Positions 27,349-64,000 of a stretch of 64,000 nt of DNA are shown here, piece after piece. The translations under genes were made by a program, and so were the position numbers. Position 1 is the stretch's first letter. Every line of letters begins with the position of its first letter. This DNA comes from Promethearchaeota archaeon (GTDB taxonomy: Archaea > Asgardarchaeota > Heimdallarchaeia > Hodarchaeales > Hodarchaeaceae): assembly GCA_048938105.1 (NCBI GenBank), contig JBHLMN010000004.1, positions 287,442-351,441 of the forward strand, read 5' to 3'. The notes beneath the pieces are model-generated. The model had not been told where the DNA came from. It saw only the letters and a program-made list of their open reading frames with translations, and did no database searches.

Positions 27349-27675
27349 TTACTTTCGACAATTTTGTGGTTCAGGCACTTCCCCTGTCTTCGCACACACA
27401 AACCATTGTTCATCGGCTAGTCCTATACTCGTTACCAAATGTAAATGTGGGCATTCAATCTCATAGTTCTGTTGATAGATCTGTTCCATCTGGATGGGGG
27501 TTCCCTTGATAAAATATGGGCATTTGATAGGGCATCGGGTGAGGTATTCTCTCATCACCAGACAATAATAAATTGTACGGGATTTCTGCTGGTCTATCAC
27601 TTGATATTGGCATTCTTTAGGCGTGGATTCCGTGCGTAGTCCTCCTCTGGGATTAGCATGGTACCGATTGTTCAT
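27349..27675 (-). CDS. Cys-rich small protein, paralog of 34556..34897
   Basis: EC..CL..CPxxCxxF..YEIEC..C..C pattern; directly follows luxC. Confidence 0.7.
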   Translation of the reverse strand: MNNRYHANPRGGLRTESTPKECQYQVIDQQKSRTIYYCLVMREYLTRCPIKCPYFIKGTPIQMEQIYQQNYEIECPHLHLVTSIGLADEQWFVCAKTGEVPEPQNCRK

Positions 27676-29113
27676 CCATCACCCACTTGCACATACGTCG
27701 GAGTGGTTCTATGGCATCCTGTGGTGTCGCAAAGCTTGCTGTTGCCGCATATCCCAATGAGACAATCCGTTGCACTCCCGAGCGCACCAAGTCATCACGG
27801 ATCTGCTGTTTCAATCGTTCAGGGTAGATCCCCACTGTTTGTGTGTACGCATTCACTGACTGGACGACCGTCTGTAACTCATCCACGGGTACTAGATTCA
27901 CTACCCGTCCACATAATTTGGGCGAGAAATCCACAGGTTCATCGATCTGGCTCACGATCACTGCTCCTTCGTTGTGTTCGCCTCCTAGCACCTTGTAAAA
28001 GTCCTCATCCATCCGTAATCCCTCAATATCCGCTTTCAAATCGAGGTTAAAGTCTTTCGCAGGAGTGGACAAATGGTGCGGGAGATTCACCAATGAGTAG
28101 TACAGATAAGCGCCTAGTTGGTTCAGGTTGGCAATTCCCTTCTTATCAGTCCCTGATTCTACATATATTACTCGACTATTCACGCACGCTTCTTGGTTAA
28201 AACTTCCCACATCGATCGCAGCGCGTTGGGTAGCCGTTCGTAAGGTCTTCTCATTCTCGAATGCTTCCTTACCAATGATCGAGAGACTCAACTTGGGATC
28301 TAATGTGATCAAGTCGATTCCTGGTTGCAGATATTGACTGATATGCTTCACCGAGGCGAAACCCCCCCATGCTATGATTTTTTCTAGGTACTGGGGTTGG
28401 TAGAACGCGCTTTCAAACTCTGTATTCCCTCCTTTGTAATATAGCACTGTCACATGTTTTGTGATCGGGTGTGTGGGTTCCATCTCAATCATCGTTCGTG
28501 CTAGTGCACTTGCTGTGAGTGGATCGTTCGATGGCAATTTGATGATTGTGTCACATCTGGTGCAACAACTTCTAGCTAGTGTTCCCGCTGCTACTAGTGG
28601 TACGTTTCCAGCAATTATATGTGCTGTGCGTGCGCCAAACGCTCTCACTGACACCGTGCGTCCATCATTTAACGTCATTGGCACCCATTCTTCCAAATAC
28701 TTGATTCCGATTCGTTTCTCCAACATTTCTCTCAAGAATTCTTTCGACAAGAATGTGGGTAGTGCCTGATACGTTGTTTGCAACACGCTTTTCGTTAACC
28801 CTGATGCCTCACAGTTCAGTAGGAATGCTTCACGTAAATACTCATTCTCTGGGAGTACACACCGTTCCCCCAGATCCTCCATAAACGTCAAGATTTCCTC
28901 AACACTCAGTTCGTATAAGTCTTTCAAGTGTGACGGGTGTTTCAACACAATTTTCAGCAAATATTTCTTTGGATCGGGTGTGCAAAATGTTGTTACCCCA
29001 TGGCGCCCTCCGAATATAAGGGTATAATCATCAATGATCCGCCCTCTCGCTATGATTGGCACTTCGTATTCCACTAGTTCTATGGTCGTTTTTGGTTCAT
29101 TCAATACTTCCAT
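27653..29113 (-). CDS. luxC: Long-chain acyl-CoA reductase (LuxC family)
   Basis: HIIAGNVP, IIKLPSNDP, IIAWGG, DPKLS, NQEACVNSR and QTVG. Likely start is ATG 29113 (the track extends to 29188). Confidence 0.88.
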   Translation of the reverse strand: MEVLNEPKTTIELVEYEVPIIARGRIIDDYTLIFGGRHGVTTFCTPDPKKYLLKIVLKHPSHLKDLYELSVEEILTFMEDLGERCVLPENEYLREAFLLNCEASGLTKSVLQTTYQALPTFLSKEFLREMLEKRIGIKYLEEWVPMTLNDGRTVSVRAFGARTAHIIAGNVPLVAAGTLARSCCTRCDTIIKLPSNDPLTASALARTMIEMEPTHPITKHVTVLYYKGGNTEFESAFYQPQYLEKIIAWGGFASVKHISQYLQPGIDLITLDPKLSLSIIGKEAFENEKTLRTATQRAAIDVGSFNQEACVNSRVIYVESGTDKKGIANLNQLGAYLYYSLVNLPHHLSTPAKDFNLDLKADIEGLRMDEDFYKVLGGEHNEGAVIVSQIDEPVDFSPKLCGRVVNLVPVDELQTVVQSVNAYTQTVGIYPERLKQQIRDDLVRSGVQRIVSLGYAATASFATPQDAIEPLRRMCKWVMDEQSVPC

Positions 29114-29171
29114 TGACTGATCACCTGATAATGAATGCATTATGAAAAAATAGAGGAAAAGATGAAGGAAT

Positions 29172-30632
29172 CTACGCCTCCTCCTCATCCTCGAGAAGGA
29201 AGTCTAGGAGATTATCGTGGGCTTCGTGTACCCCTGCACAACTTATCTTGTCGTCGCCCCCTTGTTCCTCACTGTACCGAATGATGTTGTTCTCGAGCCA
29301 CGGCCCTTTCAACCCACACGCGCAATTGTCCCAGTGAATAGTCACTTTGTCGCCCGACACGAATCCGCCCCAATAGGTCTCGGTGAGGAGATCATAGAAC
29401 GCAAAGCGCCCTGTATGTACCCCTTCTCGGGGATAGGCTTCCCCTGTATCGGGATCTAACACAAATGGGACGTGGTACGGCAGGATGTGGTAGTGATTGT
29501 ATTCACACAATGCTGCACCTCCGCCAGAGGTTTCGGTCATGCCATATGCATCACGGATTTGTTTAAATCCCCAAAATTCACAGGTTTTTTCATACCATCC
29601 CTCGGGGTAGACTGCCCCTTTCATTCCTCCGCCTGTGAGGATTGCTGAGGTTGGGGCAAAGATGTTCTTAATTCCCTTCTCGATTCCTTGGAGGGCGGGC
29701 TCCACCAACATATTCCATGTGCCTATGAGGAAGACTTGTCAGCCAGCATACTTTGTGGTGATTTTGGTAAAAAACTCTTCCATTGCTTTTGGTTGTGCTT
29801 TCTTCATCCGAATGAGTTCGCCCTTGTTCCAGGCCATCGCTTTGATCAATTGGAGTTTTCCGAGTTCCCCTTTTGCCTTCGCCGCTTTTAATCGTCCTGC
29901 CAATGAGATGAAATCTGCACTCATGGGGAAGTCAAATGCGGTGACGAAGTCTTCTTCTCCCCCTGCAATGATGGGGCCTATCTGGGAGCAGACACGCTGT
30001 GCCAGTTGCCTGCCTCCTCGAAACACGGGGGCTATGCAGGGCATCTTCGTTTCATGGAAATTCACCCCATTTTGCAGTTCCAGCATCATGAAGAACCCGT
30101 TAACGTAGTTTGTCATCTCACTCTGGCTTCGGGGGAGGAATGACAGTTTCCCTGACGTTCCTGACGAATGCACGACCAGTAATTCTGATTGCGCTTCCAC
30201 CTGGTCTAACCAATCATCTATGCTTTTGGCTTGGATATTGTAACAGTGCGATAAGTCATGGGTCGTGAATTTATCTAACCATTTGGTTAACAGGCCATAC
30301 CGTTTCTTCTCAATCAGACTCAACGGATACGACTTGTATGCCGTGTGCTGGAATAAGATTGGTACTACATCGTCTAGTGTCTCAATTTTACTGATATTCT
30401 GCTCGTCAGCTAACTTCTCTAGCGCTTTCACGCGTGGTCGGAAGTATTCAAACGCTTGTTTGACCCATTTTAGTTGTAACGCGGTCAGTGTCTCTCCATC
30501 GATCGTGTACAGGTCTCTCGGGACGTTCTTCGATCGATCCACCCATTCCCGTGGGTGGCCTGCTAGTTTTCCGAATTGTTCTGTTGTTCTTTCGGCTGCT
30601 TCTTTTGTTGTGATTTCTGTTTCTATGGTCAT
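29172..30632 (-). pseudogene. luxE: LuxE-like acyl-protein synthetase interrupted by one in-frame TGA at 29739-29741
   Basis: HSSGTSGKLSF, YGMTE and GRFAFYDLL...SGD motifs. Reads KYAG*QVFLIGTWNMLVEP, so both track ORFs are in one frame. Confidence 0.8.
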
Positions 30633-30705
30633 TGTTCTTGCTTCCAAGAATTGTTCTTGCATCTGCTAGCTATTCTTGGCAGCTGTTTTTATACTTGAAA
30701 TCCCA
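30629..30705 (+). repeat. 77-bp direct repeat, copy 1 (luxE promoter/leader including its ATG)
   Basis: 74/77 identical to 34343-34419; contains a GTATAAAAA TATA-like box on the - strand. Confidence 0.92.
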
Positions 30706-48550: not shown

Positions 48551-48840
48551 AAGAATGGATTTTTCAAGGATCTTCAAAAAAAACCGTAGATCACATATTT
48601 TTAGGTAATACAAGGGCAACCCATTTTTCATATCTTCGGGCTAGAGATTATGAATTCACTTCTATTGTAACAGGCTCTGTATACTCAATCTTAAATCTTT
48701 ATTTTGGGTATAGTTTCCTTAAATTTAAGCATTCTGAGAGCGAAATCGCTTAATGATCTTTAAGGTGTTGTTAATTACTCCTTTATTACGAGATTTTTAT
48801 AATTGTATTTATGTATAATACTAATAGAAAGCATATCAAG

Positions 48841-49248
48841 ATGAATCCTAACAAGAAAAAGACTGAAGAAGAATGGAAAAAAATCCTGACAAAAGAAAAT
48901 TTCAGGATACTCCGAGAGAAAGGTACAGAACGAGCTTTCACAGGGAAATATTGGGATCATTTTGCTGAAGGGGAATATAAGTGTGCAGGATGTGGAACCC
49001 CCCTTTTTGTGTCTGAAGAGAAATTCTTATCGAGTTGTGGATGGCCTAGTTTCTCTAATCCAGTTAAAGGCACTATTAAAGAAAAAATCGATACTTCCCA
49101 TGGAATGATTCGGACTGAAGTGTTATGTTCGGCTTGCGGAGGGCATTTGGGACATGTGTTCAATGATGGCCCAAAAGAGAAAGGAGGATTACGGTACTGT
49201 ATCAATTCAGCTTCAATAGAATTTGAACATTGTGATTTTCCAAAATAA
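48841..49248 (+). CDS. msrB: Peptide-methionine (R)-S-oxide reductase; last five codons supplied by the transposon end
   Basis: [36 protein letters not shown] and RYCINSAS. Confidence 0.97.
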
Positions 49249-49296
49249 GTGATAAATTGTTCAAAATAATGATTAATTTTCCAGAAATAATTATAA
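49231..49296 (+). repeat. Transposon end: TGTGA followed by three TnsB-type binding sites
   Basis: TTTTCCAAAATAAGTGATAAA (49236), TTGTTCAAAATAATGATTAA (49257) and TTTTCCAGAAATAATTATAA (49277); preceded by AACAT. Confidence 0.8.
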
Positions 49297-49344
49297 TAAA
49301 GTATACATACAATTTCTTTTTCTTTTAGTAAATATCCTTATCAT

Positions 49345-50796
49345 TCAGATTGGAGTCAGAATTAGATTTGGTTTCGAAGTATACAATCCTGTTAAAATCT
49401 CAAAAGCTCCTGACAAACCCAAAGAGATAATATCATCAGAAGGTATGTGTGAATGCATTATTTTGTTTCTAAGTGAATTTAAATTCGTAAATGCCCTTTT
49501 CAATCTCTCCAAATCTGGAAATACATTATAGAAAAATTTATTATGTAATGAAGTAGTTGATACTATCTTACCCAAATCAGAAAAATATGAATTAACAAGA
49601 ATAGCACGTAAACATTCGATGGGGTCATTAAATTTGTTGTTCACGAGTTTTTCTTTTTCTTCTTTACTTTTTGGAATTTTATTCTTTTTAAAAGTTCTCT
49701 GACTAGCACTACCTTTTTTGATGCTTTCTGGCAATATTTTCCAAAGATGATACGATGAATTCCACCCCTTTGGAGTTAATTTTTCCACGATTAGATCCCT
49801 AAGATTGTCTTCTAAGAAAATTATCAACTGAAAGATCTCCGATGATACTATTATATTTGAATCACCATATATGCGGTTTCTAAACGTATTAAAAACAATT
49901 AATGGATAATTTAGAACCTGTTTTGTAAGTGTTCTATATTTTGACCTGTTTTCAGGTGATATATTGGCAGATTCTATTAGTTCATGTGTGAATTTAATAT
50001 TTCCTTTTTCAATTATCTTAATCATCTCAATCATAAATTTAACAACTTCTAATAGAACATTTGGTTGTTTTACTAAACTAAAATGATTGAAGAGCTCCTC
50101 ATCGGATAGATTGTTTGCAAGCCTTTCTATACCTTCCAGTTTTGATCGAATCAAATTTATTCTGTCGTTTAATGGCTTTTCTTCTTTAATTTGGGAATCC
50201 CCAATAATTTTCTTTATTTCACCTTTTATCAAAACTAAATTAGGTGATAATTCAACAGTCTTTTCTTTGAATATTTTCTTGCATAAATCTGATGATCTTA
50301 TTGAATAAATGAATGCATTTTGATTCATCAGAGCTGTATCAACTTCACTTTCATTGTGGATAGAAAAAGTGCCATTTGAAATCCAAGAACTACTCTTTAG
50401 TGTACATTTAATTTTTATTAGTCCTATATTGTATAATTCCCACAGACTGTTCTGAAGCTGACTTTCAGAAAAAGAGCTTTTTCTTAATGTTCGCTCTCTT
50501 GTCCATTTTGCATGTGATTCTAAAACAATAATTAGAATATTGTGTAAAAATGATCTTCTCAATATATATTTTTTTAACCTATTAGGATCTATTAGGTCTG
50601 TAGTTTCCCTTAGTGAGATAATACGGATTATTTTAAATTTTACTATATTTAAGACTCCACAATTAGGACAAATTGTATATCTATTATTGACAAAGATTTC
50701 ACAAATATTTAGGCTATTCTGAATTTCATAAGAAACTGTGAAAGATTTAATAGTAGCATCAAAGTAGTCTGAACAATGTTCACATGTAAAAATTAT
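49345..50796 (-). CDS. Zn-ribbon + wHTH + Swt1-like HEPN protein; probable ATA start (483 aa)
   Basis: The frame is open from 50796, adding CEHC...CPNC upstream of the track's TTG at 50562. FLEDNLRDLI, YFSDLGKIV and LRNKIMHSH. Confidence 0.8.
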   Translation of the reverse strand: MIFTCEHCSDYFDATIKSFTVSYEIQNSLNICEIFVNNRYTICPNCGVLNIVKFKIIRIISLRETTDLIDPNRLKKYILRRSFLHNILIIVLESHAKWTRERTLRKSSFSESQLQNSLWELYNIGLIKIKCTLKSSSWISNGTFSIHNESEVDTALMNQNAFIYSIRSSDLCKKIFKEKTVELSPNLVLIKGEIKKIIGDSQIKEEKPLNDRINLIRSKLEGIERLANNLSDEELFNHFSLVKQPNVLLEVVKFMIEMIKIIEKGNIKFTHELIESANISPENRSKYRTLTKQVLNYPLIVFNTFRNRIYGDSNIIVSSEIFQLIIFLEDNLRDLIVEKLTPKGWNSSYHLWKILPESIKKGSASQRTFKKNKIPKSKEEKEKLVNNKFNDPIECLRAILVNSYFSDLGKIVSTTSLHNKFFYNVFPDLERLKRAFTNLNSLRNKIMHSHIPSDDIISLGLSGAFEILTGLYTSKPNLILTPI

Positions 50797-53576
50797 TCAT
50801 CATCCCTTTTCTCTAAATAATATGGAATCTTTGTTGAAGTTATATCTGCTTTGAAAATCGCTTCAGGTATCTTAACGAAACTTGGATTGCCTTTCTCTCT
50901 TCTTCTAACTAGATAAACTGTTTTAGCTGGTTTAAGATAGATATTCTGAGGTGAAATAATCAAATAGGTAATCCTACTGCCCCCCAATATTTTCATTAGT
51001 TCTTCTGTCCTTATAGGATCTGTTCGTTCATAAATTTCATCCCAAAAACAAAATGTATGCTTGAGAAATGTTTCTTGAACTGAAACAATAAATGCGATTA
51101 ATATAGCTGCTTTTTCTCCACTACTAAAAATGCTTTCTCCCAAAGCTGAATGGTACTCTGATCCTTCAGAAAATCTAACTTTTAAATCAATTCCAAGGTT
51201 GTCAGTAATGGTATCTGCCTTTCCAATTAAATTTATTCTTCCTTCTGCCTTTATTAGGCTCATGAGTTCATTAAATCTTCGGTTAAGTATCTTAATACTG
51301 TTTTGTAAATCCAAACGATATCTCTTAATATAAGACAAAATTTTGTCTTCCCATATACCCACTTCACCTCTACATTGATCTAATTTCCCTTGAAAATCTT
51401 CAATTTCTGATTCCAGTAACATTATTTCTTGAGAGTGATCTCTTGCATCCTTAACTTTTTCTAATTCTTTTTTTAAGAAATTAGTCTCAGCTTCATAAAA
51501 GCTGGGTACTTCCAGTTTATGTAATTCTGAGAGAGTAACAGATGGAAATTCTACTTCCAACCTTTCTTTTGTTCTCTTAACCGTTCTTAGCTCAATTTCA
51601 ATTCCAGATTTTTGATCTTCTTTGTTTTTAATTTCTGTATTGAGACTATTAATCTTTTCCTTAAATTTTTCCCTTTTTCCTTCCTTTTCTCTTAGTCTTA
51701 CACCTAAGTTTTCTAATTCATTTTGAATTCTACTTTGTTCAATATTATGATCCTCAATAATTTCTTCTAGACTACATTTTTCAAATTCTTTGTCACTAAT
51801 CGTTTTTAATAATTGAGATTTACTCTCCCAATTGACTAGTAATCTTTTGAACTTGTTAAATTTCTTAATATGGTTTAATTTAACCATTTTTTTTTCATTT
51901 TCATTATTTAATTGTTCCTCAAGTCCTTTTATCTCAATATCTAATGTTTCAATTTGTTTTTCCCAATCTATAACTGGTTGAATATTCTCTGATAGAGTAT
52001 AACGATATCCGATACCATCATATAGAATTCCATCATTCTCTATCACTTTTTTACTATATTCTTCATTTTTTATAACTTTTATAAGTTCTTCATTAATTAT
52101 TTCAGATAAAATTTCATATTTACAATTATATAATGATTTAAAATAGTCATTATAAGAAAAAGGGACAGATTTATCTATATCAGTTAAGCTAATCAAATAT
52201 TTTTCAAAATTAGTTTCTTGAAACGCTTTCTTAACTGTTTTAAGATTACTAGAAATATTATTTTCAGTCACAAGGGAATACCGTAGATCTTTCAATATTG
52301 CTTCTATTAAAAGTTTCATTTCTTTCGGTGTGTTTTCATTAAAACTTATAATTTTGTAAAAAGGTTCAGTTAAGATATTTAGATTTCCTAATTTATCTTG
52401 AAATTCAATTGATGGTTTTGTTAAAGGTTTTCCACTCTCTAAATTCATTTTTGTTTTTGTAAGTTTTTGTAAACTCATATCTAATTTATCAAACTCTCTA
52501 TCTATTTGTTTTACCTCTTCTTCGTAAGATTTAATCTTGTTTTTTACTTCAGGAATATCCAAACCTTCTGGAATTTTATTCGCCATAGTATGAAATTCAT
52601 TCAATTTATCAAGCTGTTCTAAAATTTTTCCTAAATTAATGGTAAGATCACTAATCTCATCAGTTTTTATATCCAATTGTCCTTTTACTATTCTATATTT
52701 TTCGTCTAATAACTCTATAGCATCCCTATTTTTTTTTAGATTCTTTTCATATCCCTTTTTCCTTTCTTTATGTTCATTTATATCTTCTAATATCGAGTAT
52801 AGATCATCTTCTAATTTACCTTGATTTTTTATTGCTATATTAAGTTCTGACTTTTTCTTATTTAAAATAGATAAATCTATTCGTTCTTCAATACGTTTCT
52901 TTTTTTCAAATCTGTCCTGTTGCCCTTTTAATAAATTAATTTTTGCACTTTTCTCTAATAACTCGTTATTAATCTTTTGAATCTCTTCATTAATGTTTAC
53001 TAATCTTATTAGATCTTTATCCCAATTTTTCCTTAAGTTTTGTAATTTTAAAATTCTCTCAAAGTGTCTTAAGAGGGAAACTGGCGAACTATCAAGAATA
53101 CTTCTTGTTTGACCTGCTGCAATAAATGTTGCTTGATCATCAGCATTAAACTCTATTTTACTCAATATTTCTCTTATTGTGGCTTGACTCGTTGATTTCC
53201 CATTAATTTTATACGATCGTGTAATTCTTTCTTTCTGATTATTGTCAATGAATCTTTTGAATTCTACTCTGAATTTAATAATATTCATACCTGTAGTCAA
53301 ATGATGTTCAATAAGATCTTTCCCGTTTGTTCGATTACTTATATTAACTTCAGCAAACCCAAAATCTGTACCATTTCTTAGTAATAGATTATTAGGTCTA
53401 CGTGATGTTCCACCAAGGGCAACTAAGACCGCATTCCATATAGATGATTTTCCTGATCCATTATCACCGTAGATTACATTAAGATCCTCAGAAAACTCTA
53501 ACGTAAGACCAGGATCACCTATTCCCATTATATTTACAACAGAAACCGATTTTATCATTTCTAACCCCAAAATCAA
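50793..53576 (-). CDS. SMC-family ATPase (JetC/MksB- or Smc5/6-like)
   Basis: GDNGSGKS, coiled coils, hinge-like PFYKIISF...IEAILKDLRYSLV, FSSGEK and FWDEIYERTDP; no Rad50 CxxC hook. Confidence 0.9.
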   Translation of the reverse strand: MILGLEMIKSVSVVNIMGIGDPGLTLEFSEDLNVIYGDNGSGKSSIWNAVLVALGGTSRRPNNLLLRNGTDFGFAEVNISNRTNGKDLIEHHLTTGMNIIKFRVEFKRFIDNNQKERITRSYKINGKSTSQATIREILSKIEFNADDQATFIAAGQTRSILDSSPVSLLRHFERILKLQNLRKNWDKDLIRLVNINEEIQKINNELLEKSAKINLLKGQQDRFEKKKRIEERIDLSILNKKKSELNIAIKNQGKLEDDLYSILEDINEHKERKKGYEKNLKKNRDAIELLDEKYRIVKGQLDIKTDEISDLTINLGKILEQLDKLNEFHTMANKIPEGLDIPEVKNKIKSYEEEVKQIDREFDKLDMSLQKLTKTKMNLESGKPLTKPSIEFQDKLGNLNILTEPFYKIISFNENTPKEMKLLIEAILKDLRYSLVTENNISSNLKTVKKAFQETNFEKYLISLTDIDKSVPFSYNDYFKSLYNCKYEILSEIINEELIKVIKNEEYSKKVIENDGILYDGIGYRYTLSENIQPVIDWEKQIETLDIEIKGLEEQLNNENEKKMVKLNHIKKFNKFKRLLVNWESKSQLLKTISDKEFEKCSLEEIIEDHNIEQSRIQNELENLGVRLREKEGKREKFKEKINSLNTEIKNKEDQKSGIEIELRTVKRTKERLEVEFPSVTLSELHKLEVPSFYEAETNFLKKELEKVKDARDHSQEIMLLESEIEDFQGKLDQCRGEVGIWEDKILSYIKRYRLDLQNSIKILNRRFNELMSLIKAEGRINLIGKADTITDNLGIDLKVRFSEGSEYHSALGESIFSSGEKAAILIAFIVSVQETFLKHTFCFWDEIYERTDPIRTEELMKILGGSRITYLIISPQNIYLKPAKTVYLVRRREKGNPSFVKIPEAIFKADITSTKIPYYLEKRDDE

Positions 53577-54226
53577 GTCTTCTCATTTTCAAATGTCCAC
53601 CCTTCTAAAATTGAAAAGATTTTTGTATTTAAATCATTAATTTGTTCTGAAAGTTCTGATTTCCAATCCAACAGAACAAATCTCCCACTACTGGTTGTTA
53701 TTCTTTTAATATATTTCTTATTTTCAAGTTTTGCTAGAAAACCTCTAATTTCTCTATTATTATATCCATAAGAGCTTTTGATATAATTAATAAGGGATGT
53801 TTCCGAAATATTTGACTCTATTTGGGACATTATTAATATGTATACCAATGTGGCTTTTTCAGGTGTATTTAATTCTTCTTTCATAAAATCTACGAATTTT
53901 TTGTCACCAGTAAGTATGAAGTTATTGTCATTATCTAAGATTTCTATTGAAAAGCTAGAGAATAGAGCTCTTAACCTTGTTAAATGATGATCTACATCCT
54001 TCCCTAAAATTGTAATAAGTCTATTTTTAGAAACTCCTCTTCCATCATTGAACATTAGAGCTATTAAAACTGCGATTAATCTATTTGATAAGTCTTGTGA
54101 CTTTTCGTTTTTGATCAACAAAACATCATCATCTTGTTTTTTAGTCAGATAGCCTAGAATGTTAAAAAAACACTTAGTAGCTTTAATTTCTTTTGTAGAA
54201 AAGTCGTCAGGTAAAATTATGTTCAG
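53573..54226 (-). CDS. Tandem winged-helix KITE-like subunit (JetB/ScpB/Nse1-3-like); probable CTG start
   Basis: Two wH-like halves (LNTPEKATLVYIL...LAKLENKKYIKR), positioned between the kleisin-like and SMC genes. The frame is open to CTG 54226 behind GAGGTGA. Confidence 0.7.
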   Translation of the reverse strand: MNIILPDDFSTKEIKATKCFFNILGYLTKKQDDDVLLIKNEKSQDLSNRLIAVLIALMFNDGRGVSKNRLITILGKDVDHHLTRLRALFSSFSIEILDNDNNFILTGDKKFVDFMKEELNTPEKATLVYILIMSQIESNISETSLINYIKSSYGYNNREIRGFLAKLENKKYIKRITTSSGRFVLLDWKSELSEQINDLNTKIFSILEGWTFENEKT

Positions 54227-54236
54227 TTATATCACC

Positions 54237-55466
54237 TCAAGCTTTATTGATCAAACCATTTCTTATTCTTGAAATTTTCTGGTGCTTTATTTCGTCTATT
54301 TGCTCCTTTAAGGCAACTTTGATTACTCCCCTAATCTCTAGGTCCTTAATGGCTCTTATTATTGCATTAGAGTCTTCCCATTCTTTATTTTCAATAAGAT
54401 TTTGGATTTGAATAGGTTGAAAATCGCTTAAATGATTATAAATTTCTTCTTGTTTTTCTAATGTCCCTTGATTTGGCCGATATTCCTTCGGAATTTCATT
54501 AACATTATTAATTAATATTGGAACACTGAATTGATGTACTTTAGTTGATACAGACTCTCTTTGCGAGCTTTTTTCATCTTTAATACACCATTTTAAAACA
54601 TTAGTTGATGTAATAATTGGTAAAGATTTGCTACTTAAGAATGGTAAAAATTCAATCAATCTTGCCATTTCTTCAACAGTTGCAGATTTAAGATAGTTCT
54701 GTACATCATCTGGATATATTCCAACTTCAGAAAGCTTAATTTTTCTTTTAATAAAACTTGACTCACGTTTCCAGGCAATTGAGAAAGCTTTAGTCAATTC
54801 TTGACGTAATTTGCTAAAGGGGGCAAAATCCTTTATATTGGTTGTTGGCTTGAGGTGTATATCGACTTGCTCTATTATTTCTCTTCGAAGTTGTTCAAGT
54901 GACTCTCCATATGTCTCATTCGAATCTGATCGATAATTCATATAGATACTTTCTATGATTGATCTCAGTAATTGTTGTAGACTTTCAAAATCACCTATTG
55001 CATCACCCTCTCCAGTCCAGGATAATATCATATCAAATCTTTTTTTCGCCATCCAAAAGTCTGAATTCGGTAATGTAGCTAGCAATTGAGATAAAATAAA
55101 GGCAACCCAATTCCCTTTTGGTGTAAGTATATATGTATTGAAATACTTCCCTTCTATTAAAAGGTTGAGAGTACGCAATTTTGCTAAATCAGACGATTTA
55201 ATTTCGACTAGACCTGGAAAATGATGTTCTACTAATGATTGAATTTCTCTACGGGTCAATGATTGTTCAGGCTTATAATTCCAAGCCATTGATAATAGGA
55301 TTAAGAAACGTCGTATTCCTGAATCACCTCTTTGTGATACTATGAAAAGAATTCCAGAAATTTCTTTTAGAGAATCTAGTGAAAAGAAGATCTTTTTAGA
55401 TCTTCCTGGAAAATAGATTTTCTCTCCGTGAAAATAATCATTAGTCTTCATTTCATCATTTCTCAT
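54237..55466 (-). CDS. Kleisin-like subunit (JetA/MksF-like)
   Basis: N-terminal wH (YILTPKG), helical bundle, low-structure linker and C-terminal wH (IRAIKDLEIRGVIKV); first gene of the SMC operon. Confidence 0.65.
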   Translation of the reverse strand: MRNDEMKTNDYFHGEKIYFPGRSKKIFFSLDSLKEISGILFIVSQRGDSGIRRFLILLSMAWNYKPEQSLTRREIQSLVEHHFPGLVEIKSSDLAKLRTLNLLIEGKYFNTYILTPKGNWVAFILSQLLATLPNSDFWMAKKRFDMILSWTGEGDAIGDFESLQQLLRSIIESIYMNYRSDSNETYGESLEQLRREIIEQVDIHLKPTTNIKDFAPFSKLRQELTKAFSIAWKRESSFIKRKIKLSEVGIYPDDVQNYLKSATVEEMARLIEFLPFLSSKSLPIITSTNVLKWCIKDEKSSQRESVSTKVHQFSVPILINNVNEIPKEYRPNQGTLEKQEEIYNHLSDFQPIQIQNLIENKEWEDSNAIIRAIKDLEIRGVIKVALKEQIDEIKHQKISRIRNGLINKA

Positions 55467-55587
55467 TTTATGTCCCCTACCTGTGACATGAAAAAAAACA
55501 GTAAGATTAGTTATATCTCTTTAATGAATAGTATAAAAATTCTTTTTTCTAAAGAATTTACCACAAAAATTTCTTGGAAAAAATAAA

Positions 55588-56739
55588 CTATTTCTTTCTT
55601 ACTCTGTTCACCTCTCCAAATACATTTAATAATAAATCATTCCACGAATAGATACCAAAATTTCTCCAATGTCCTAGATGACATGCACCTTGAATTGACC
55701 TCATTCCTAAATCTCTTTTTTTTGGTTTTCGCTTATAAATTTCCGCGAATTTCAGTAATTTTTCCTTAGCATGATCAAATCCCTTCTTTCCAATGTAAAT
55801 ATTATTTTTTCGATTAACATCACCAAATATATCAAAAAGTAGATCATTCCATGAATTAATCCCAAAATCTTGCCAATATCCTTTAAAACACGCTTTAGCG
55901 ATTGTTTCCATCCCTTTATCTCTGTAATTAGGTTTTCTTCTGTATTTCTTGCAGAAATCTAAAAGTTCACCTTTTACTCGCTTTAGATTTTCTAATCCTT
56001 TGAAAAGATTAATCTCCTGATTTACTTCTCCAAAAATATCCATTAATAAATCGTTCCATGAAGATATTCCAAACTCCCTCCAATTACCCTGAAGACATGC
56101 TTTTTGAATTGATTTCATCCCTTCATCCCTAATTGTTGGTTTATAGCCTTTTTCTTTGAAAAAAGCAATTATTCTCTTATTTGCGAGCTTTAAACCCTTC
56201 AAACCAACATAAGGATTTCTTTCTTTATTTAATTCTCCAAATACACTCAAAAGTAAATCATTCCATGAGGTAATACCATAATTAGTCCAGTAGTTATGAT
56301 AACATGATTCTATAAGAGATTGCAATTCTTTATCATTGGAAGTAGGCAATCGTTTATGCTTATGATAGAACACCCTCAATTTGCATTGGGCAATCTCTTT
56401 TCCTAATTTTCCTTTCCTCCCATTTGTTTTGATCAAGGCTTTGAGAAAATCTTCAAATTCAGCTAAAAGATATGTTAATTTTCTTAAAAAGTTATATTCT
56501 ACGTTATATTTCTTACAAATCTCATTCGAATATCCAGAAATAAAGAATTCCATTATAATTTGCTTTAACCGCCTAGTCTCTTTTAAAAACCATTTTGAAT
56601 AAAATTCTTCATTATCAATTTTCCATATTCGGAGGTCATCATAAATCTTGACTGAAAAAGTAAAATCTTGATAATCTAGGATTTTTGTTTTCAAATCACT
56701 TGGTTTCACAATTTTGAAGTTTTGCCCATCTACACTCAT
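55588..56739 (-). CDS. Repeat protein B: four 69-aa W..GI.SWNDLL..FG repeats; candidate transposon target selector
   Basis: 207-bp DNA period (55634, 55841, 56048, 56255). Likely start is ATG 56739 behind GGGGA (the track starts at 56856). Confidence 0.8.
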   Translation of the reverse strand: MSVDGQNFKIVKPSDLKTKILDYQDFTFSVKIYDDLRIWKIDNEEFYSKWFLKETRRLKQIIMEFFISGYSNEICKKYNVEYNFLRKLTYLLAEFEDFLKALIKTNGRKGKLGKEIAQCKLRVFYHKHKRLPTSNDKELQSLIESCYHNYWTNYGITSWNDLLLSVFGELNKERNPYVGLKGLKLANKRIIAFFKEKGYKPTIRDEGMKSIQKACLQGNWREFGISSWNDLLMDIFGEVNQEINLFKGLENLKRVKGELLDFCKKYRRKPNYRDKGMETIAKACFKGYWQDFGINSWNDLLFDIFGDVNRKNNIYIGKKGFDHAKEKLLKFAEIYKRKPKKRDLGMRSIQGACHLGHWRNFGIYSWNDLLLNVFGEVNRVRKK

Positions 56740-56819
56740 ATTTAATTCCCCTTGAATTGATATGTCGAAAAGGTTATCGTTTTTGTTAATTCTGACTTTT
56801 ATATCAATAGTATAACGTT

Positions 56820-57941
56820 TTATTCGTTCCAAACCTCCTTTAACAAATCTATCCAAGAATTAATTCCATTTTTAGTCCAATAACCTCTTTGAATTGCTTT
56901 TACAATACCACCTACACCCTTTGACCTTCTTGTAGGTTTTATTTCATTTGTCTTATAATACATTCTTAGGTAGGCTTTTGCATATTCTAATCCTTCCTCT
57001 CCAGTCCATATGTGACTCTTTTTATTTACTTCTCCAAAAATATGAAAAAGGAAATCATTCCAGGAGTGAATTTTTTGATCTTCCCAATATTTCCTCTTGA
57101 TTGCTGTACAAATTCCCATCATTTTACAGTCATTAGCTTTAGGTTTTCTCTCATGAGTCGAATAAAATTCTAACGCTTCCATTTTTGCTTTTTCAAACCC
57201 AGCTTGCCCTGTATATACATTATTTTCTTTATTAACTTCCCCAAAGATTGTTTTCAGTAAATCATTCCATGATTTTATATTAAAATCCTTCCAAATACCT
57301 CGTGAGATAATATTTAGGTATTGTGACATCCCATTATCCCTTGTAGTTGGAATTCGATCAAATTCGCGATGAAAGTTACGAAGTTTTTCTTCAACTACTT
57401 CCAATCCTTCTTTACCATTATAAGTACCATATTCTTGATTCACATCACCAAAAGCAGCCCTGAGTAGTTCATTCCAACTTGTAATTACATATTTTTCCCA
57501 ATAAAGCTTTCTTCTTAGAGCTTTTTGAAGTCCATTAAACCCCTTATCTCTCTGAACAGGATTACGTCCTTTTTCTTTTTTAAAAAGTCTTAAACGAGCT
57601 TTAGCGAGTTCTAAACCTAATCTTCCCTTCCAACCATTTACCCTGAATAACGCAGATGTGATATTGGTGAATTCTAGAACGTTGAAAGCTAATTCTCTAA
57701 TAAGTTGAAAATCTTGATCGTATTTATCACAAACTGATTGGGAGTATCCTTCTTGAATAAATTCTATTACAATAATCCTTAGTTTTTGAACTTCCTCTAG
57801 GAACCATTTGGAATAACATTCTTCATTATTAATCTTCCACAAACCAGAGAAATTTAATAGGTTGATATTCTCTAGATTAGTTCCAACTGAATGAATAGCA
57901 TCTGCAGTTTTACATGGCTTTGGAATTTTAAAAATGTCCAA
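56820..57941 (-). CDS. Repeat protein A: four ~69-aa repeats, paralog of 55588..56739
   Basis: Shared N-domain WKI.NEE.YSKWFL.E and the same repeat consensus; directly downstream of tnsC. Confidence 0.8.
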   Translation of the reverse strand: MDIFKIPKPCKTADAIHSVGTNLENINLLNFSGLWKINNEECYSKWFLEEVQKLRIIVIEFIQEGYSQSVCDKYDQDFQLIRELAFNVLEFTNITSALFRVNGWKGRLGLELAKARLRLFKKEKGRNPVQRDKGFNGLQKALRRKLYWEKYVITSWNELLRAAFGDVNQEYGTYNGKEGLEVVEEKLRNFHREFDRIPTTRDNGMSQYLNIISRGIWKDFNIKSWNDLLKTIFGEVNKENNVYTGQAGFEKAKMEALEFYSTHERKPKANDCKMMGICTAIKRKYWEDQKIHSWNDFLFHIFGEVNKKSHIWTGEEGLEYAKAYLRMYYKTNEIKPTRRSKGVGGIVKAIQRGYWTKNGINSWIDLLKEVWNE

Positions 57942-57967
57942 ATCATAATCATTTCCCCTTAAATCTT

Positions 57968-59179
57968 CTATATCCGATCACCCTCTCTATTAACTAGTTT
58001 AATGTTTTTATGTTTCATTTTATAATGATTAATTAAATTTCTGTATGTTTTGTAAGGAGATCGAGACCTTTTGCACCCTTTAATCTTACATAAACGGTCT
58101 TCAAACCCAAGGACAATTTTCAGCTCATTACCATCCTCATGCTCTACTCTAAGAGTTTCATAATTAACTCCCTCAAGGATAATTAAGCCATAATCATCTT
58201 TATCTGGATAGAGTCGTCCTGCGTTAAGGGCTCTTTTTGCTGCATATTTGATCAGTTCAACAGTCAATCCCGCTTTCCCATAACTTCTTTTATAAAGAAA
58301 CATTGCTATTTCTGGATTTAAAACTAAATTTTCACTAGATTTATCCTCAATTACCAAATTCCATTTATCTGAAATTCCCATTGATGTGAAATCTTCATGA
58401 ATAGCCCATAGAAAATTACCATATTCAATCTGGGGTAAACTCCTTAGTTTAATAGAATGGGCTCTTCCTTGTATCCAGTCAGCTGCATCTAATAATGGAA
58501 GGCCATCTTGTGTTCCACAGAGCAAAAAATATGTTCTTAATGAGTCTTTCCAGTATGATTTTGTTGTTAAGTCTTTCAAAGCCTCAAAGATATTCGGAAT
58601 GTCAGGATTTCTAGATTTTAATAGGCGTTGACATTCATCTATAATTAATAAACGTGTTTTATACGATTCTAGTACTGATATGAGTTTCTGTCGGAGACGG
58701 ACTTCACAAACATTAGTTTTTTCCCAATTCTTAACCTGACGCGGATCAATAGGCCGTCCTAATTGATCTAGTAGAAATAACAATAATTGTTTCGCAGTGT
58801 TAATATCATTTGTTAAATTAACAATGATAATTGGATGAGTTTCTTCAGGATTGTCCCAGTATGAACGATATTTCTCTTTAAAAAGGGAAGCTGAATATCT
58901 TAATAAATAGGACTTTCCTGAATTATAATCTCCATACAAGAATAATATCCGACCCCGATCATTCATATCTTGATCAGCATCACGAAATCTAGGATCAAGT
59001 TCAAGTCTAATAATTTCTTTTGCTTGGTTATACATATAGAATGGTTTTCGTGTATTAATTCGGTCAAGAATTTCCTTTAATTCTTTAGGAAGTGAATCCA
59101 ACAGTTCAAGATGGTCTTCTGACACTTCAAAGTTATCATAACTATCAATTGAATTAGAAGTCATGTTTTCTATACTCAC
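57968..59179 (-). CDS. tnsC: TnsC/TniB AAA+ ATPase with C-terminal C2H2 zinc finger
   Basis: GDYNSGKS, LLIIDECQ, LCGT and IQGR; C-terminal CKIKGC...HYKMKH; overlaps the tnsAB stop by 4 nt. Confidence 0.88.
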   Translation of the reverse strand: MSIENMTSNSIDSYDNFEVSEDHLELLDSLPKELKEILDRINTRKPFYMYNQAKEIIRLELDPRFRDADQDMNDRGRILFLYGDYNSGKSYLLRYSASLFKEKYRSYWDNPEETHPIIIVNLTNDINTAKQLLLFLLDQLGRPIDPRQVKNWEKTNVCEVRLRQKLISVLESYKTRLLIIDECQRLLKSRNPDIPNIFEALKDLTTKSYWKDSLRTYFLLCGTQDGLPLLDAADWIQGRAHSIKLRSLPQIEYGNFLWAIHEDFTSMGISDKWNLVIEDKSSENLVLNPEIAMFLYKRSYGKAGLTVELIKYAAKRALNAGRLYPDKDDYGLIILEGVNYETLRVEHEDGNELKIVLGFEDRLCKIKGCKRSRSPYKTYRNLINHYKMKHKNIKLVNREGDRI

Positions 59180-61824
59180 CTCTTTTTCCTTTTTGCTAGA
59201 TCTCCAGCTTTCTTTTTTGTTATACCAGAAAATGGATTAGCTATTTTTGAAGGAATTTTAATTGTTTTTAGACGTTCTGGCTTTTCGATCTGAAAGACTT
59301 CAGGGTTAATGTGTGTATCGTCATTATTTTTTGTAAATCTATCATTTTCTTTATTGGAATAATTAGGTTTACTTTTTTCTCTACACTTTCGTCTTGCGTG
59401 TTTTTGTCGTGCACTCTTTGTTTTTTCTGCAGCTTTTTGATCTATTTCTTGCTGTAAACTTAGAAGTCTTAATTTTCTCTCCATATCTTCCTCTTTTCTT
59501 CCTTCGAGATTTTTATCAGCCTTTATAGCATTCCAATCCCATAGAGAAAGAGATTTTTCTCTAAAATAAATATTTACAAAACGATCAGTACAATTAAGCT
59601 CAATATATCCACGAATGTGATCATAAAAGTAAATTATTCTTATGTCTCTTGGATCAAACCTAATTCGAAACTTCTGACTTCTTTTCGTATTTATTGGATC
59701 TTTACTACCAATATATTGTTCAATTTCTTCGTTTGCATATTTAAGACCAAAGATTTCAATACCACTTTTCTGAACAGTTCGTAATTCAGAAGGTAGAACG
59801 TCAAACTTGAAAGTAGTATTGTCAACATGAAGTAAATTTCTATTGATCCCTCTTTCCTCACTAATCAATGAAAAACTTTGCTTCCATTTGGCCAAAGGAT
59901 TAGTTCTAATCTGACTGTGGTATTCTTCATGATAAAGTGCAATTTCTGTAATTATTCTGGCTTCTAATTCATCAATGGTAAAACTAGCTCTTTTTTCCGA
60001 TGGATAGTTCTCTCTTTGAGTAGGATTAGAATATGTGGTTCCTGCAATAGAATGTAATCTATTATTAAGTGTGCCAAGGAATCGTTCGACATAAGCTCCA
60101 TGTTGAGGCTTTTTTACTGCACGATAATGTAAATGAACTCCATATTTTAATCCAAAGAGCCTTATATCTTCACTCGTAAAATCTGAACCATTATCCATGT
60201 GCAGTGTATAAGGTAAACCAAATACTTGACACCATTCACTCGATTCCAAAATCCCTAGTTTTTCTGAATCTAAATCAGGAAATTGTTCTCTAACTTTTAG
60301 AAGAGATTCTTTCTTGTTTTGAATACAATTAATCAAGGTCATTGCAATAGAAAGCCGACTGGGAGAGTCATAGGTGATATAATATCCCAGAACACATCTA
60401 GAATGACTATCGAATGCTATGGTGATATAAGGACGTTCAGTAACTAATCTATATTCCTCATCCACAACTAAAACATCAATTGGGGTGTGATCAATCTGTA
60501 CGGATTGCAAAACATAAGTACCATGTGGAAATTCCGATGTATTGATATTAAACAAGTTTTCGATGGCTTTTTCCCCTCTCCTTTGTTTAATTACTTCTTT
60601 TTGAGAAATGCTCTTTAATCTACGCCTAAAAGATGAATAGCTTAAGCAATGTTCTAATTGACCTTGTTCTAATGCATAGGCTTGCATAAGTTCATGGGCC
60701 CGTTTGATACTTTTCCGTTCCATTTGTAAGTAATAACTTAGGCCTATCTCGCATAATTCCTCCGTAAGGCCCTTTTGTACCTTTTTTCTTCCTCTTTGAT
60801 TGTACTTGGGAATCAGGCTTTTTATATCCCCCCCACTTTTGTTATAAGCTAATATCCAACGATACACGGTTAACCAAAAGATCTCTTGGCCATCTTTTTT
60901 GAATTTCATTTGTTTTAATCGTTTAATTGGAGTTCCTAATAAGGGGTAAATAATTTCTAATCGAGAATTAGCCTCCTCCCACAGTTCAATGGATTTTTTC
61001 GGATTATTAGAGATTGCATATACATCATTGTAAAATGTTACACTAGAATCTACACTTTGTTGTTTTTCCCAATCGAAAGTTCGAAACCAAGTGTCTAATG
61101 GTTTATAATTGGATCTAAATGTATTTACTTCATAAAGAAATGATTTTTCTGTTAGTAATTCATCTATATTTACGTTTAATTCGAAATGATATATCATAGC
61201 ATAAAGAGTTGACCAAATATCATCAATAGTAACACTTTCGGGAAGAAGTTTCAGATTAATGGATTCTACTAGATTTCTTATTCTAATTCTTGGTTTTTTT
61301 GATAAAATGGCTTTTATGTGTTTTTTGATTTCTATATAAACCATTGGGTCTATCGTAGCTTGCATTAATTTTCGTAAATTGTAAATTCTGAAAGATTGGT
61401 TTACGATCTGATCTGTAACTACAATAAACTCAATATCTACATTATTTATGTCTGTTATTTGATTTGAGAGATCATTTCTGTTTTCATCAATCCATTTCTG
61501 GGTTTCAGAGAATTTCTTAATGAACTCCATCTTCTTCTCGAGTAAATCTTTAAGATACTTAACTTCGATGATTAGAATCTTATATCGTTCATCAATTTTC
61601 AAGAAAACTACAAAATCAGGTGTCCATACACTTTTTGACCATTTAAGTTCAATTCCATGTTCACAATAGGATTTTACAAATGGGTCATGTTCAAGAAGAA
61701 TAGCTACATCCCATTCTAAGTTTGATTGACACCATACCTGTCTTCTAAGCTTTTTTGAGTAAAAAAAAATTGTTGTTGATATTTGGTTAGCTTTAGGTGT
61801 ATGTAAAGGACTGGTTTTTAACAA
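59176..61824 (-). CDS. tnsAB: TnsA-TnsB fusion transposase
   Basis: TnsA: FYSKK...QSNLE...TPDF...IEVK. TnsB: VQIDHT, RPYIT.AFD..SR, HMDNGSDF, GAYVERFLGTLN and Mu-C-like RFDPRDI. Confidence 0.93.
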   Translation of the reverse strand: MLKTSPLHTPKANQISTTIFFYSKKLRRQVWCQSNLEWDVAILLEHDPFVKSYCEHGIELKWSKSVWTPDFVVFLKIDERYKILIIEVKYLKDLLEKKMEFIKKFSETQKWIDENRNDLSNQITDINNVDIEFIVVTDQIVNQSFRIYNLRKLMQATIDPMVYIEIKKHIKAILSKKPRIRIRNLVESINLKLLPESVTIDDIWSTLYAMIYHFELNVNIDELLTEKSFLYEVNTFRSNYKPLDTWFRTFDWEKQQSVDSSVTFYNDVYAISNNPKKSIELWEEANSRLEIIYPLLGTPIKRLKQMKFKKDGQEIFWLTVYRWILAYNKSGGDIKSLIPKYNQRGRKKVQKGLTEELCEIGLSYYLQMERKSIKRAHELMQAYALEQGQLEHCLSYSSFRRRLKSISQKEVIKQRRGEKAIENLFNINTSEFPHGTYVLQSVQIDHTPIDVLVVDEEYRLVTERPYITIAFDSHSRCVLGYYITYDSPSRLSIAMTLINCIQNKKESLLKVREQFPDLDSEKLGILESSEWCQVFGLPYTLHMDNGSDFTSEDIRLFGLKYGVHLHYRAVKKPQHGAYVERFLGTLNNRLHSIAGTTYSNPTQRENYPSEKRASFTIDELEARIITEIALYHEEYHSQIRTNPLAKWKQSFSLISEERGINRNLLHVDNTTFKFDVLPSELRTVQKSGIEIFGLKYANEEIEQYIGSKDPINTKRSQKFRIRFDPRDIRIIYFYDHIRGYIELNCTDRFVNIYFREKSLSLWDWNAIKADKNLEGRKEEDMERKLRLLSLQQEIDQKAAEKTKSARQKHARRKCREKSKPNYSNKENDRFTKNNDDTHINPEVFQIEKPERLKTIKIPSKIANPFSGITKKKAGDLAKRKKR

Positions 61825-61853
61825 TTGAACTCATCTGAATGGTTTTTAAATGA

Positions 61854-61872
61854 TTATCATTATTTTGGAAAA
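61854..61872 (-). promoter_or_regulatory. Single TnsB-type site upstream of tnsAB (probable autoregulatory operator)
   Basis: Reverse complement is TTTTCCAAAATAATGATAA, matching the consensus of the end repeats; no terminal ACA next to it. Confidence 0.7.
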
Positions 61873-62322
61873 AAAGAAGTTTATAAGCTCCCTAGAACTT
61901 AGTTTTCATATGTCAGCTCCTTTAAAAGCAAGCATTGGTAGTATTTCCTGCCGTAGCAACCGAAAGAAACGTCTAATAACACATCAAATCAATACATACT
62001 GTTCATTGACAGATTTAACTCTGTCAAATCATAAGTAGAAGAAGGGAACTAATGAGGTTGTAGGTGATGTATGAGTGATGAACGAGGAAGCGGCTTATAA
62101 TGGCACACTGGAGCTAATGTTTAAGCAATATCCATGATTAAAATATAATCCTAGAAAATATAACCAGAAATCAATAAATAAGCAAATACTGGTGATTATG
62201 CCAAATAATAAGGTAGAGTCTGATCCTGAACTAAGACTGGTAGGAGTCAATAACCGTTATATTGATGTTAATTTATTAGCGTTTATTGATGTTCAGTAAG
62301 TATTACTTGATTAGGGGATAAA

Positions 62323-64000
62323 ATGCCGTACTATTACATAACAGAAACAAATTTTGATCCATCTGTAGTAACCAAGTACGAAGAATTGCTTAAATGGTTT
62401 GAACAATCATTAAATGAAGAATATCATATCTTTATTGAGTTCAAAGTGCCAGCTGGGCGGGAAATTGACTTCTTAATACTAGCAAGAGATGGAATATGGC
62501 TAATTGAGCATAAACAGCATGATTTCATTGAGATCTTAAATGAAGGAAACTGGAAATATAAGGACCATCGTGGTCAAGAGAGAACACTTATTAAAAAAGT
62601 CAAAACTGGATATGAGAATCCATATAGACAAGCAACTAATACTGGAAACAACTTTGCTTCTTGGTTAAGACGGAATAACCATCTAGGTAACAATCTAAGA
62701 AAAAGAAAAAAGATTTACCCATGCGTGACATTCCCCGATTACCCCACGGAAATAGCAAAGCAAGAAACAGACTTGTGGTGTTATATTTCTAAAGGCGTGG
62801 AAGGAATACAAAAGAACATGGAAAATAGACGATGGGAGGAAGGTGATTGGATAACAGAGGAAGCAATAGAAAACATAGCTACAGCATTAAACTTAGAAAG
62901 AATCTCCTATACAGACCTGATCCAACATAAAGCCAATTTAGAAAAGATTTTTATGGAAACCAGTAAAGCACAGGTGCAAGAAGTCAAGAAAATTTTTGCT
63001 GAAACAAATCAAGTATTTTCTAATAATGATTGGATCTTTTGTGCTAATTTAAAAGAAGAAAAATCCTCCCCTAGATTCAAAGAAGTACCATTAACCGATT
63101 TTAATAAAGAGTCACTCCCATTCATTCTCACAGGTGATTTTGGGAGTGGAAAGACAGTTGTGTGCTACCAGATTATGGAATATCTTTTAAAAAAACATTT
63201 GGGCTTTTATTTTCCTGTGAGAGAGATAATTGTAACAAAAGAGAACGAATCACATCAAAAAATTCTGTTTAAAGGTAAAGATTATACTTATCCCATTAAT
63301 GTAAATCAGGATATTTTTGAAAACGTAGAAAATGAAGTTAATGAAATAATTGTGTTTCTAATCAAAACCTTAATAGCTACTTATAATGAGAAGGGACTAA
63401 TTGACCAAATCACCAATGGTATCAAGAACTACTTGAATGATCAAAGATTCTTCATAATATTAGATGGATGGGATGAAATTTCAAGTCATTCCAGGAGTCT
63501 ACTGAAAAAAATCCTTGATTATCTGTTAATAAAGGATGTAGCTGTTATTGTTTCTTGCAGAACACCGTTAGACGTACACTTACCAAGAACCAAGGTAGAT
63601 AGTAAAAAAATCCCTATATATAACCCTATTCCATTACCAGAACAACAGATGATACAATACATCTCGGAACGGATTAAAAATTGGCTAATAGATATTTCTG
63701 CACCGCAAATTCTCTCTCTGTTAAAGAAAACTTATGATAATAATATTACACCTTTTCATCTATATGCAATGACAATTGTACCTATAACTGAACCTCCAAA
63801 GAATACAGCGCAATTGCTTCGATGGATGATTATTGCTCAAGTTGGTTGGGAATTATTGAAGGAAAGAAAGGATGAGTTTAAAGATATTAAAACGATTCAA
63901 GACCTTATAAATCTCTTAAAAAAAGAAATGATAATCATAGGTACAAAAGAAATCTCACTATACAATGCTATCTTTGATTACCAAGAAATTGATAACGATA
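62323..64000 (+). CDS. NERD nuclease + NACHT-like STAND NTPase, runs off window end
   Basis: Hand translation from ATG 62323 (GGGGA upstream): EIDFLILARDGIWLIEHK, ENPYRQA, LTGDFGSGKT and FIILDGWDEI. Confidence 0.85.
   Translation, partial: MPYYYITETNFDPSVVTKYEELLKWFEQSLNEEYHIFIEFKVPAGREIDFLILARDGIWLIEHKQHDFIEILNEGNWKYKDHRGQERTLIKKVKTGYENPYRQATNTGNNFASWLRRNNHLGNNLRKRKKIYPCVTFPDYPTEIAKQETDLWCYISKGVEGIQKNMENRRWEEGDWITEEAIENIATALNLERISYTDLIQHKANLEKIFMETSKAQVQEVKKIFAETNQVFSNNDWIFCANLKEEKSSPRFKEVPLTDFNKESLPFILTGDFGSGKTVVCYQIMEYLLKKHLGFYFPVREIIVTKENESHQKILFKGKDYTYPINVNQDIFENVENEVNEIIVFLIKTLIATYNEKGLIDQITNGIKNYLNDQRFFIILDGWDEISSHSRSLLKKILDYLLIKDVAVIVSCRTPLDVHLPRTKVDSKKIPIYNPIPLPEQQMIQYISERIKNWLIDISAPQILSLLKKTYDNNITPFHLYAMTIVPITEPPKNTAQLLRWMIIAQVGWELLKERKDEFKDIKTIQDLINLLKKEMIIIGTKEISLYNAIFDYQEIDND

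Follow-up and report, generated by a model that had tools for sequence, protein, structure and literature searches.

A Tn7-like transposon in an Asgard archaeon appears to carry an array of undescribed 69-amino acid repeats in place of TniQ/TnsD

A Tn7-like element inserted at the end of msrB was identified in a 64,000-nucleotide stretch (the window) of contig JBHLMN010000004.1 from a member of the Hodarchaeaceae, and its targeting appears to employ an undescribed repeat array in place of TniQ/TnsD. The repeats, each of 69 amino acids (aa), are carried by two adjacent proteins, RepA and RepB, and the arrays probably act as sequence-specific target selectors that replace TniQ/TnsD; of the two proteins, RepA more likely reads msrB. 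Their position and probable targeting role point to a new, putative family of modular DNA-reading proteins. A modular DNA reader is plausible and has a concrete target (msrB). TniQ is regarded as the signature of site-specific Tn7 elements and as an adaptor that they require, and surveys use it to locate them; such surveys would miss a lineage that is site-specific and TnsA-bearing but has no TniQ, and this lineage would imply another route of TnsC loading.

The core of the element is encoded on the minus strand by an operon in which a gene for a fused TnsA-TnsB transposase of 882 aa (59176..61824; PF08722, PF09039, PF00665, and PF09299, with the TnsA nuclease and DDE motifs located) is followed by that for a TnsC/TniB AAA+ ATPase (57968..59179; PF05621, E = 1e-12; Walker A at aa 83 and Walker B at aa 179) and then by RepA and RepB. 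At its C-terminal end, TnsC carries a C2H2 zinc-finger motif (nt 58007-58090, minus strand) that is present in 17 of 17 members of its clade and absent from six other TnsCs examined. The element combines TnsA and TnsB, a tnsC following tnsB, TG ends with repeated sites, a 5-bp duplication, and a fixed attachment gene, as Tn7-like elements do; the Tn7-like signature TniQ/TnsD (PF06527) was not found in this element, which would otherwise work like Tn7. Its cargo includes a defence-like operon (49345..55466, minus strand) encoding a 409-aa protein, an ScpB-like 182-aa winged-helix protein, an SMC-like 927-aa ATPase, and a 405-aa protein with a weak HEPN-like C-terminal match; judged by these predicted products, the operon is Wadjet/Lamassu-like, at a level below family assignment. 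A NERD-NACHT gene (62323..64000, plus strand) keeps an open frame of 1697 aa across the join to a second contig (C47), on which a gene for a HamB-like helicase also lies within the element (G000:C47:5170-7788). Between tnsAB and the NERD-NACHT gene, an inverted repeat whose 8-bp arms match perfectly around a 6-nt spacer (62007-62028) is a possible operator. The marks of a CRISPR-associated transposon were not seen: no cas match was obtained among the scanned element genes (Pfam, PADLOC), and no CRISPR array in a repeat scan of 50000-64000. Elsewhere in the window, which has a GC content of ~33%, a GC-rich block (47%; 27653-30662) with LuxC- and LuxE-like genes was likely acquired horizontally.

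The attachment gene msrB (SelR; 48811..49248, plus strand; PF01641, E = 3e-51) is interrupted in its last codons, 39 nt past the Arg codon of the RYCINS motif, and its new stop codon comes from the element end; an empty msrB end is seen in a relative (G068). The transposon end (49231..49300, plus strand) starts with TGTG and contains three repeated sites of ~20 bp, presumed to be TnsB sites, and the same end type occurs in locus L050, there with a perfect duplication. The 5-bp duplication of the target site, AACAT (49226..49230, plus strand), has its second copy outside the window, after the other end at G000:C47:10498. The contig stops at the window edge and shares 65 exact bases with C47, and the join is supported by this overlap together with the open NERD-NACHT frame. 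Since AACAT lies beside both ends, the element measures ~24.6 kb. A gene-poor mini-element with the same ends begins 16 nt beyond the C47:10498 end and is also followed by AACAT, and therefore the outer boundary could be at C47:12732.

The element family strongly prefers the 3′-end of msrB. Ends were searched with a clade-specific matrix, generic end finding being too noisy, and a RYCINS-to-end pattern was found at msrB in 25 of 399 Asgard genomes, representing 8 genera and 3 families, with 0 matches for a reversed-pattern control. The offsets past the motif range from 33 to 50 nt (mode, 40) and take 11 different values, which argues for many separate insertions among genomes whose kin are not independent; some of the insertions may have been inherited. 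An end-only search within one family returned 16 matches, namely 10 directly at msrB, 1 in tandem behind it, and 5 elsewhere, the msrB share being biased upward because the search pattern was built from msrB-linked ends. Mini-elements that lack tns and rep genes, some of them head-to-tail, make up the majority of the msrB insertions, and the window element is the only contiguous autonomous copy at this gene. The head-to-tail arrays, with gaps of 0-19 nt (G000:C47:10515-12732, L073; L146; L034/L035), suggest weak target immunity. No report of msrB as a Tn7 site was found in the open-access literature.

The rep genes occupy the slot of the tniQ/tnsD selector. Gathering of related loci through TnsC yielded ~20 Asgard elements in which tnsAB-tnsC is followed by one to three rep genes with 3-12 repeats; none of these loci contains TniQ, including a complete minimal element of 5.3 kb with a perfect duplication (L050), nor does the complete 24.6-kb element. 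PF06527 gave no match in RepA or RepB; a custom profile, for which the TniQ domains of seven related fusions were aligned, gave a best E-value of 0.51 in the six-frame genome and found both of its positive control loci; and tblastn was likewise negative for TniQ. In TnsD, the DNA-binding part is located behind TniQ. In several relatives (L001, L045, P0046, P0052, P0063, P0088, and P0128) the repeat array is itself fused behind TniQ, usually with the same N-domain. Across the loci, the type of Rep N-domain tracks the type of TnsC, a correlation that can be explained by shared ancestry, and the TnsC zinc finger co-occurs with one N-domain type. The Rep proteins could instead be accessory DNA-binding partners, like TnsF of Tn6022, with the TniQ adaptor supplied in trans by an unassembled or divergent gene: TnsF, which needs TniQ, offers a precedent, and short partnerless TniQs were reported in the same study (PMC10293859). 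Asgard genomes also contain orphan genes in which TniQ and the repeat are fused (P0046 = OLS19707.1), and the genome is a fragmented assembly of 65 contigs, in which a TniQ acting in trans may have been missed. This reading is nonetheless unlikely, as TniQ is lacking from the element, from a genome that is 99% complete, and from the ~20 related loci, and the pairing of N-domain and TnsC types also speaks against it, to the extent that common descent does not account for it.

RepA (56820..57941, minus strand; 373 aa), the candidate msrB selector, consists of an HTH-like N-domain of ~100 aa and four repeats (nt 57429-57635, 57222-57428, 57015-57221, and 56823-57014, minus strand). RepB (55588..56856, minus strand), a candidate second pathway or partner, has 422 aa if translation starts at a TTG and 414 aa if at an ATG, and likewise combines an N-domain (~100 aa) with four repeats (nt 56218-56424, 56011-56217, 55804-56010, and 55597-55803, minus strand). 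The initial annotation of the window had described 69-aa repeats in both proteins, and this was borne out: there are four per protein, at a spacing of 207 nt, and the eight together cover 55597-57635. The eight dipeptides that it had listed after a D-x-G-M motif all proved correct on re-reading, the motif itself being exact in just four of the eight units. Its description of the proteins as basic agrees with pI values of 9.3 and 9.6, but the transposase is equally basic (9.2) and one repeat unit has a net charge of 0. RepA and RepB share 39% identity, and no further copy of either was found in the same genome. An AF2 model of RepB has a pLDDT of 83 and a pTM of 0.43.

The repeat family comprises 410 proteins at 50% clustering and is present in 36 of the 399 Asgard genomes; no description of the repeat was found in the open-access literature. 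The model of a single repeat (pLDDT 93) opens with a long helix at residues 5-23; after a loop comes a short helix at 35-42 and, further on, a third at 54-62, so that three helices are predicted with a loop at the position of HTH helix 2. The four-repeat model of RepB shows high local and low global confidence (pTM 0.43), as a string of beads would. Among predicted folds, HNH_repeat proteins come closest (TM 0.71 and 0.61 over 54-59 residues, with predicted models on both sides), no solved member of HNH_repeat was found, and HNH_repeat and HA (PF03457) are the closest look-alikes of the repeat in the Atlas. Foldseek searches of the PDB and BFVD gave no match at E <= 0.001. Fold matches to solved structures were weak (best Z 4.4), the VIA Z values lying inside the background; the many TetR HTH matches (Z 3.2-3.8) were also within background, and the top weak match was a LOTUS domain. 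Against the HNH_repeat profile PF18780, RepA and RepB gave no match at E <= 1 and did not reach the Pfam gathering cut-off, single repeats gave 8 weak matches out of 140 (best E = 3e-4), and long relatives exceeded the cut-off by summed score alone (P0030, 72.9 bits; P0063, 63.0 bits). The Rep unit shares with HNH_repeat a long helix, a G-x-x-P turn, a short helix, and an S-W-x-x-L-L helix but has 69 rather than 54 aa, and the window proteins do not match the profile; it is therefore treated as a distant relative of PF18780 and not as a member. The models suggest a three-helix, HTH-like unit probably akin to Pfam HNH_repeat, which agrees with the loose likeness to homing-endonuclease-associated HTH repeats that had been noticed at the outset.

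The repeat also occurs in other settings. In a shorter form it is fused to a C-terminal PD-(D/E)xK-like domain, the motif being read by eye (P0030, P0066, P0083, P0091, P0092, and P0148; L055 and L058), and these fusions may represent a natural modular nuclease. In P0081 and P0082 it is fused to a methyltransferase domain. A three-repeat gene of ~205 aa lies away from tns genes in a conserved host context within one genus (L057:9564-10193, L059:5848-6459, and L060:1373-1993) and has possibly been domesticated.

Variability was measured as entropy per column over 65 columns of 652 non-redundant family repeats. The highest-entropy columns are 37, 34, and 41, on one face of the middle helix; column 38 ranks 6-7, and all four lie opposite the conserved hydrophobic columns, a periodicity from which their exposure is inferred. 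Surface columns 59, 3, 58, and 13 are nearly as variable. The fixed scaffold and hypervariable helix first proposed are thus recovered as a variable helix face, but not with variation confined to two residues: column 35, the second position of the noted dipeptide, is only moderately variable (G 40%, S 19%), and variation across repeats extends to five or more positions of the helix and to a loop of three residues, unlike a TALE-like variable pair. Aligning homologs and mapping variability onto a model, as had been suggested, places the variable residues on the helix that would correspond to a recognition helix, on the putatively exposed face. Asp and Glu make up 5% of residues on this face versus 22% on the other variable surface columns, and the face is rich in G, S, R, K, N, Y, A, and T, a composition as expected of a helix that would face DNA. 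Among orthologous repeats, defined by scaffold columns alone, the face is retained at 52% versus 15% off-register, and other surface columns at 42% versus 19%; the face exceeds the surface in 10 of 15 independent ortholog pairs (p = 0.30) and in 7 of 7 pairs with a scaffold identity of at least 0.65, a cut-off picked post hoc. These comparisons are suggestive, not decisive, of a position-specific keeping of the helix face in orthologous arrays.

The repeat genes might alternatively be passengers, for instance relics of homing-endonuclease-like genes that have no nuclease, the variable helix being just free surface; the repeat-nuclease fusions, the stand-alone copies outside transposons, and the near-equal variability of other surface columns would fit. 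This is very unlikely, given that rep always directly follows tnsC with overlapping or adjacent frames, that the arrays have a private N-domain and position-specific helix conservation, and that a strong site preference exists without any other selector gene.

Comparison of arrays with insertion sites covers very few elements, with one direct and one indirect case for msrB. RepA orthologs are many and widespread, their helices matching position by position, and no close ortholog of RepB was found, which leaves RepA as the common factor at msrB and, from these sequences, as a likelier reader of it than RepB. Repeat 4 of RepA and its counterpart in a protein of genome G159 have 12 of 13 helix residues in common at a repeat identity of 49% and a TnsC identity of 45%. 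The G159 element lies in a tandem array, and the same end type directly follows msrB on another contig, with a gap between; in G156, of the same genus, such a tandem array is contiguous with msrB. A mini-element at msrB in G261 retains the last two repeats of a 12-repeat gene, and this gene accompanies the RepA orthologs in G159 and L107. The contigs of the RepA orthologs P0016 and P0034 and of L107 end before the attachment side. Elements without RepA adjoin other genes (L050, L097, L100, and L111), the sister TnsCs of L097 and L107 bear different arrays, and the three rep genes of L108 have common repeats out of register. In line with the modular array initially envisaged, repeats are duplicated and reshuffled between genes; TALE-like uniformity is not seen, the median identity of repeats within arrays being 39%. 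As for other sites, remnants of one other array type lie upstream of a gene recognised by eye as pyrF-like in two genera (L053 and L063), a candidate second attachment site, and xerA was rejected as a common site of L048 and L108, there being no end array.

Two further readings bear on these sites. The Rep proteins might bind DNA in a regulatory role, as operon repressor, in end binding, or in immunity, the site being set by the TnsC zinc finger or a host factor. The finger is conserved throughout the clade, and TniQ is itself a zinc-finger protein for which it could stand in. We regard this as improbable: a single zinc finger recognises about 3 bp, insertions at unrelated genes are seen for TnsCs that share this finger, rep genes also accompany finger-less TnsCs (L036, L042, L110, and L111), the arrays range from 3 to 12 repeats though the ends are alike, and the relatives with an array fused to TniQ argue against a regulator-only role. 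Alternatively, what the arrays recognise at the end of a gene might be a feature of protein or RNA, such as the machinery that is completing transcription or translation of msrB, and not DNA sequence. An insertion spread of 33-50 nt, broader than that of Tn7, the differing third-codon positions of msrB among occupied sites, and the LOTUS domain as top weak fold match would accord with this, but the distance is linked to a coding motif and not to the stop codon, insertions occurring both before and after stops, and different arrays accompany different genes; it is accordingly a highly improbable explanation.

Under the preferred reading, in which the arrays select the target, the middle helix of each repeat would be laid in the major groove, and the array would read an extended site within the conserved msrB sequence that encodes the C-terminal part. 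TnsC would load beside the array, with the Rep N-domain and the clade-specific zinc finger of TnsC as possible contacts, and insertion by TnsAB would follow 33-50 nt downstream; a complex prediction for TnsC and the RepA N-domain scored 0.00 and was used neither way. RepB would add a further site or lengthen the one read by RepA, and new sites could arise by duplication, deletion, or swapping of repeats or of whole rep genes. As in C2H2 finger arrays, recognition is probably context-dependent rather than one repeat per base. It is a tentative and rather doubtful proposition that the 69-aa units read DNA independently of one another by a residue-to-base code that can be transferred, with arrays of 3-12 units setting the site and loading TnsC directly without TniQ, and a TALE-like code is not supported yet. 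If this were true, nature would have provided a site-specific integration system that can be programmed through protein, and the repeats would be a third class of modular DNA readers beside zinc fingers and TALEs. The insertion site of each element offers a natural readout for an HNH_repeat/HA-like repeat family of putative function, and since a candidate target gene, the ends, and a core of three or four genes are available, the modular reading is testable in Escherichia coli, as for another Asgard element.

Aloposons, which have giant genes and tRNA sites and are not known to have a tnsAB-tnsC-rep core, were considered and rejected. The accessible part of a recent survey describes archaeal Tn7-family elements with TniQ-C2H2 zinc-finger selectors, which, like the present element, occur in Asgard hosts, encode a fused TnsAB and TnsC, make a 5-bp duplication at a fixed attachment gene, and have DNA-binding modules in tandem as well as defence-like cargo (Thesier et al., bioRxiv 10.1101/2025.07.27.667033). 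According to that part, elements were located by a TniQ profile, which places TniQ-less elements outside the survey, and P0046 (OLS19707.1) is given there only as an orphan TniQ, with the repeat and msrB not described. TniQ/TnsD proteins with tandem helicase-associated (HA, PF03457) domains are shown in the same source for nrdD-targeting elements (Fig. S3) and are also known from Streptomyces telomeric elements (10.1101/2024.11.13.623437; reviewed in PMC11406308); these too present tandem small helical repeats as the presumed target reader of a Tn7-like element, but they are fused to TniQ, whereas the 69-aa Rep repeat forms a family of its own that mostly occurs without TniQ, with one to three genes per element. 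TnsF of Tn6022 is likewise a separate selector gene in the tns operon and targets a conserved coding sequence, but it derives from tyrosine recombinases and needs TniQ (Faure et al., PMC10293859), which was not detected in the Rep element. With TALE and C2H2 arrays, the Rep arrays share tandem units, a conserved scaffold, a variable face, variable copy number, and reshuffling, but no homology. Unlike TALEs, they are built from 69-aa units in which several positions vary, not from near-identical units of ~34 aa with one diresidue, and they are nearer in logic to zinc fingers than to TALEs.
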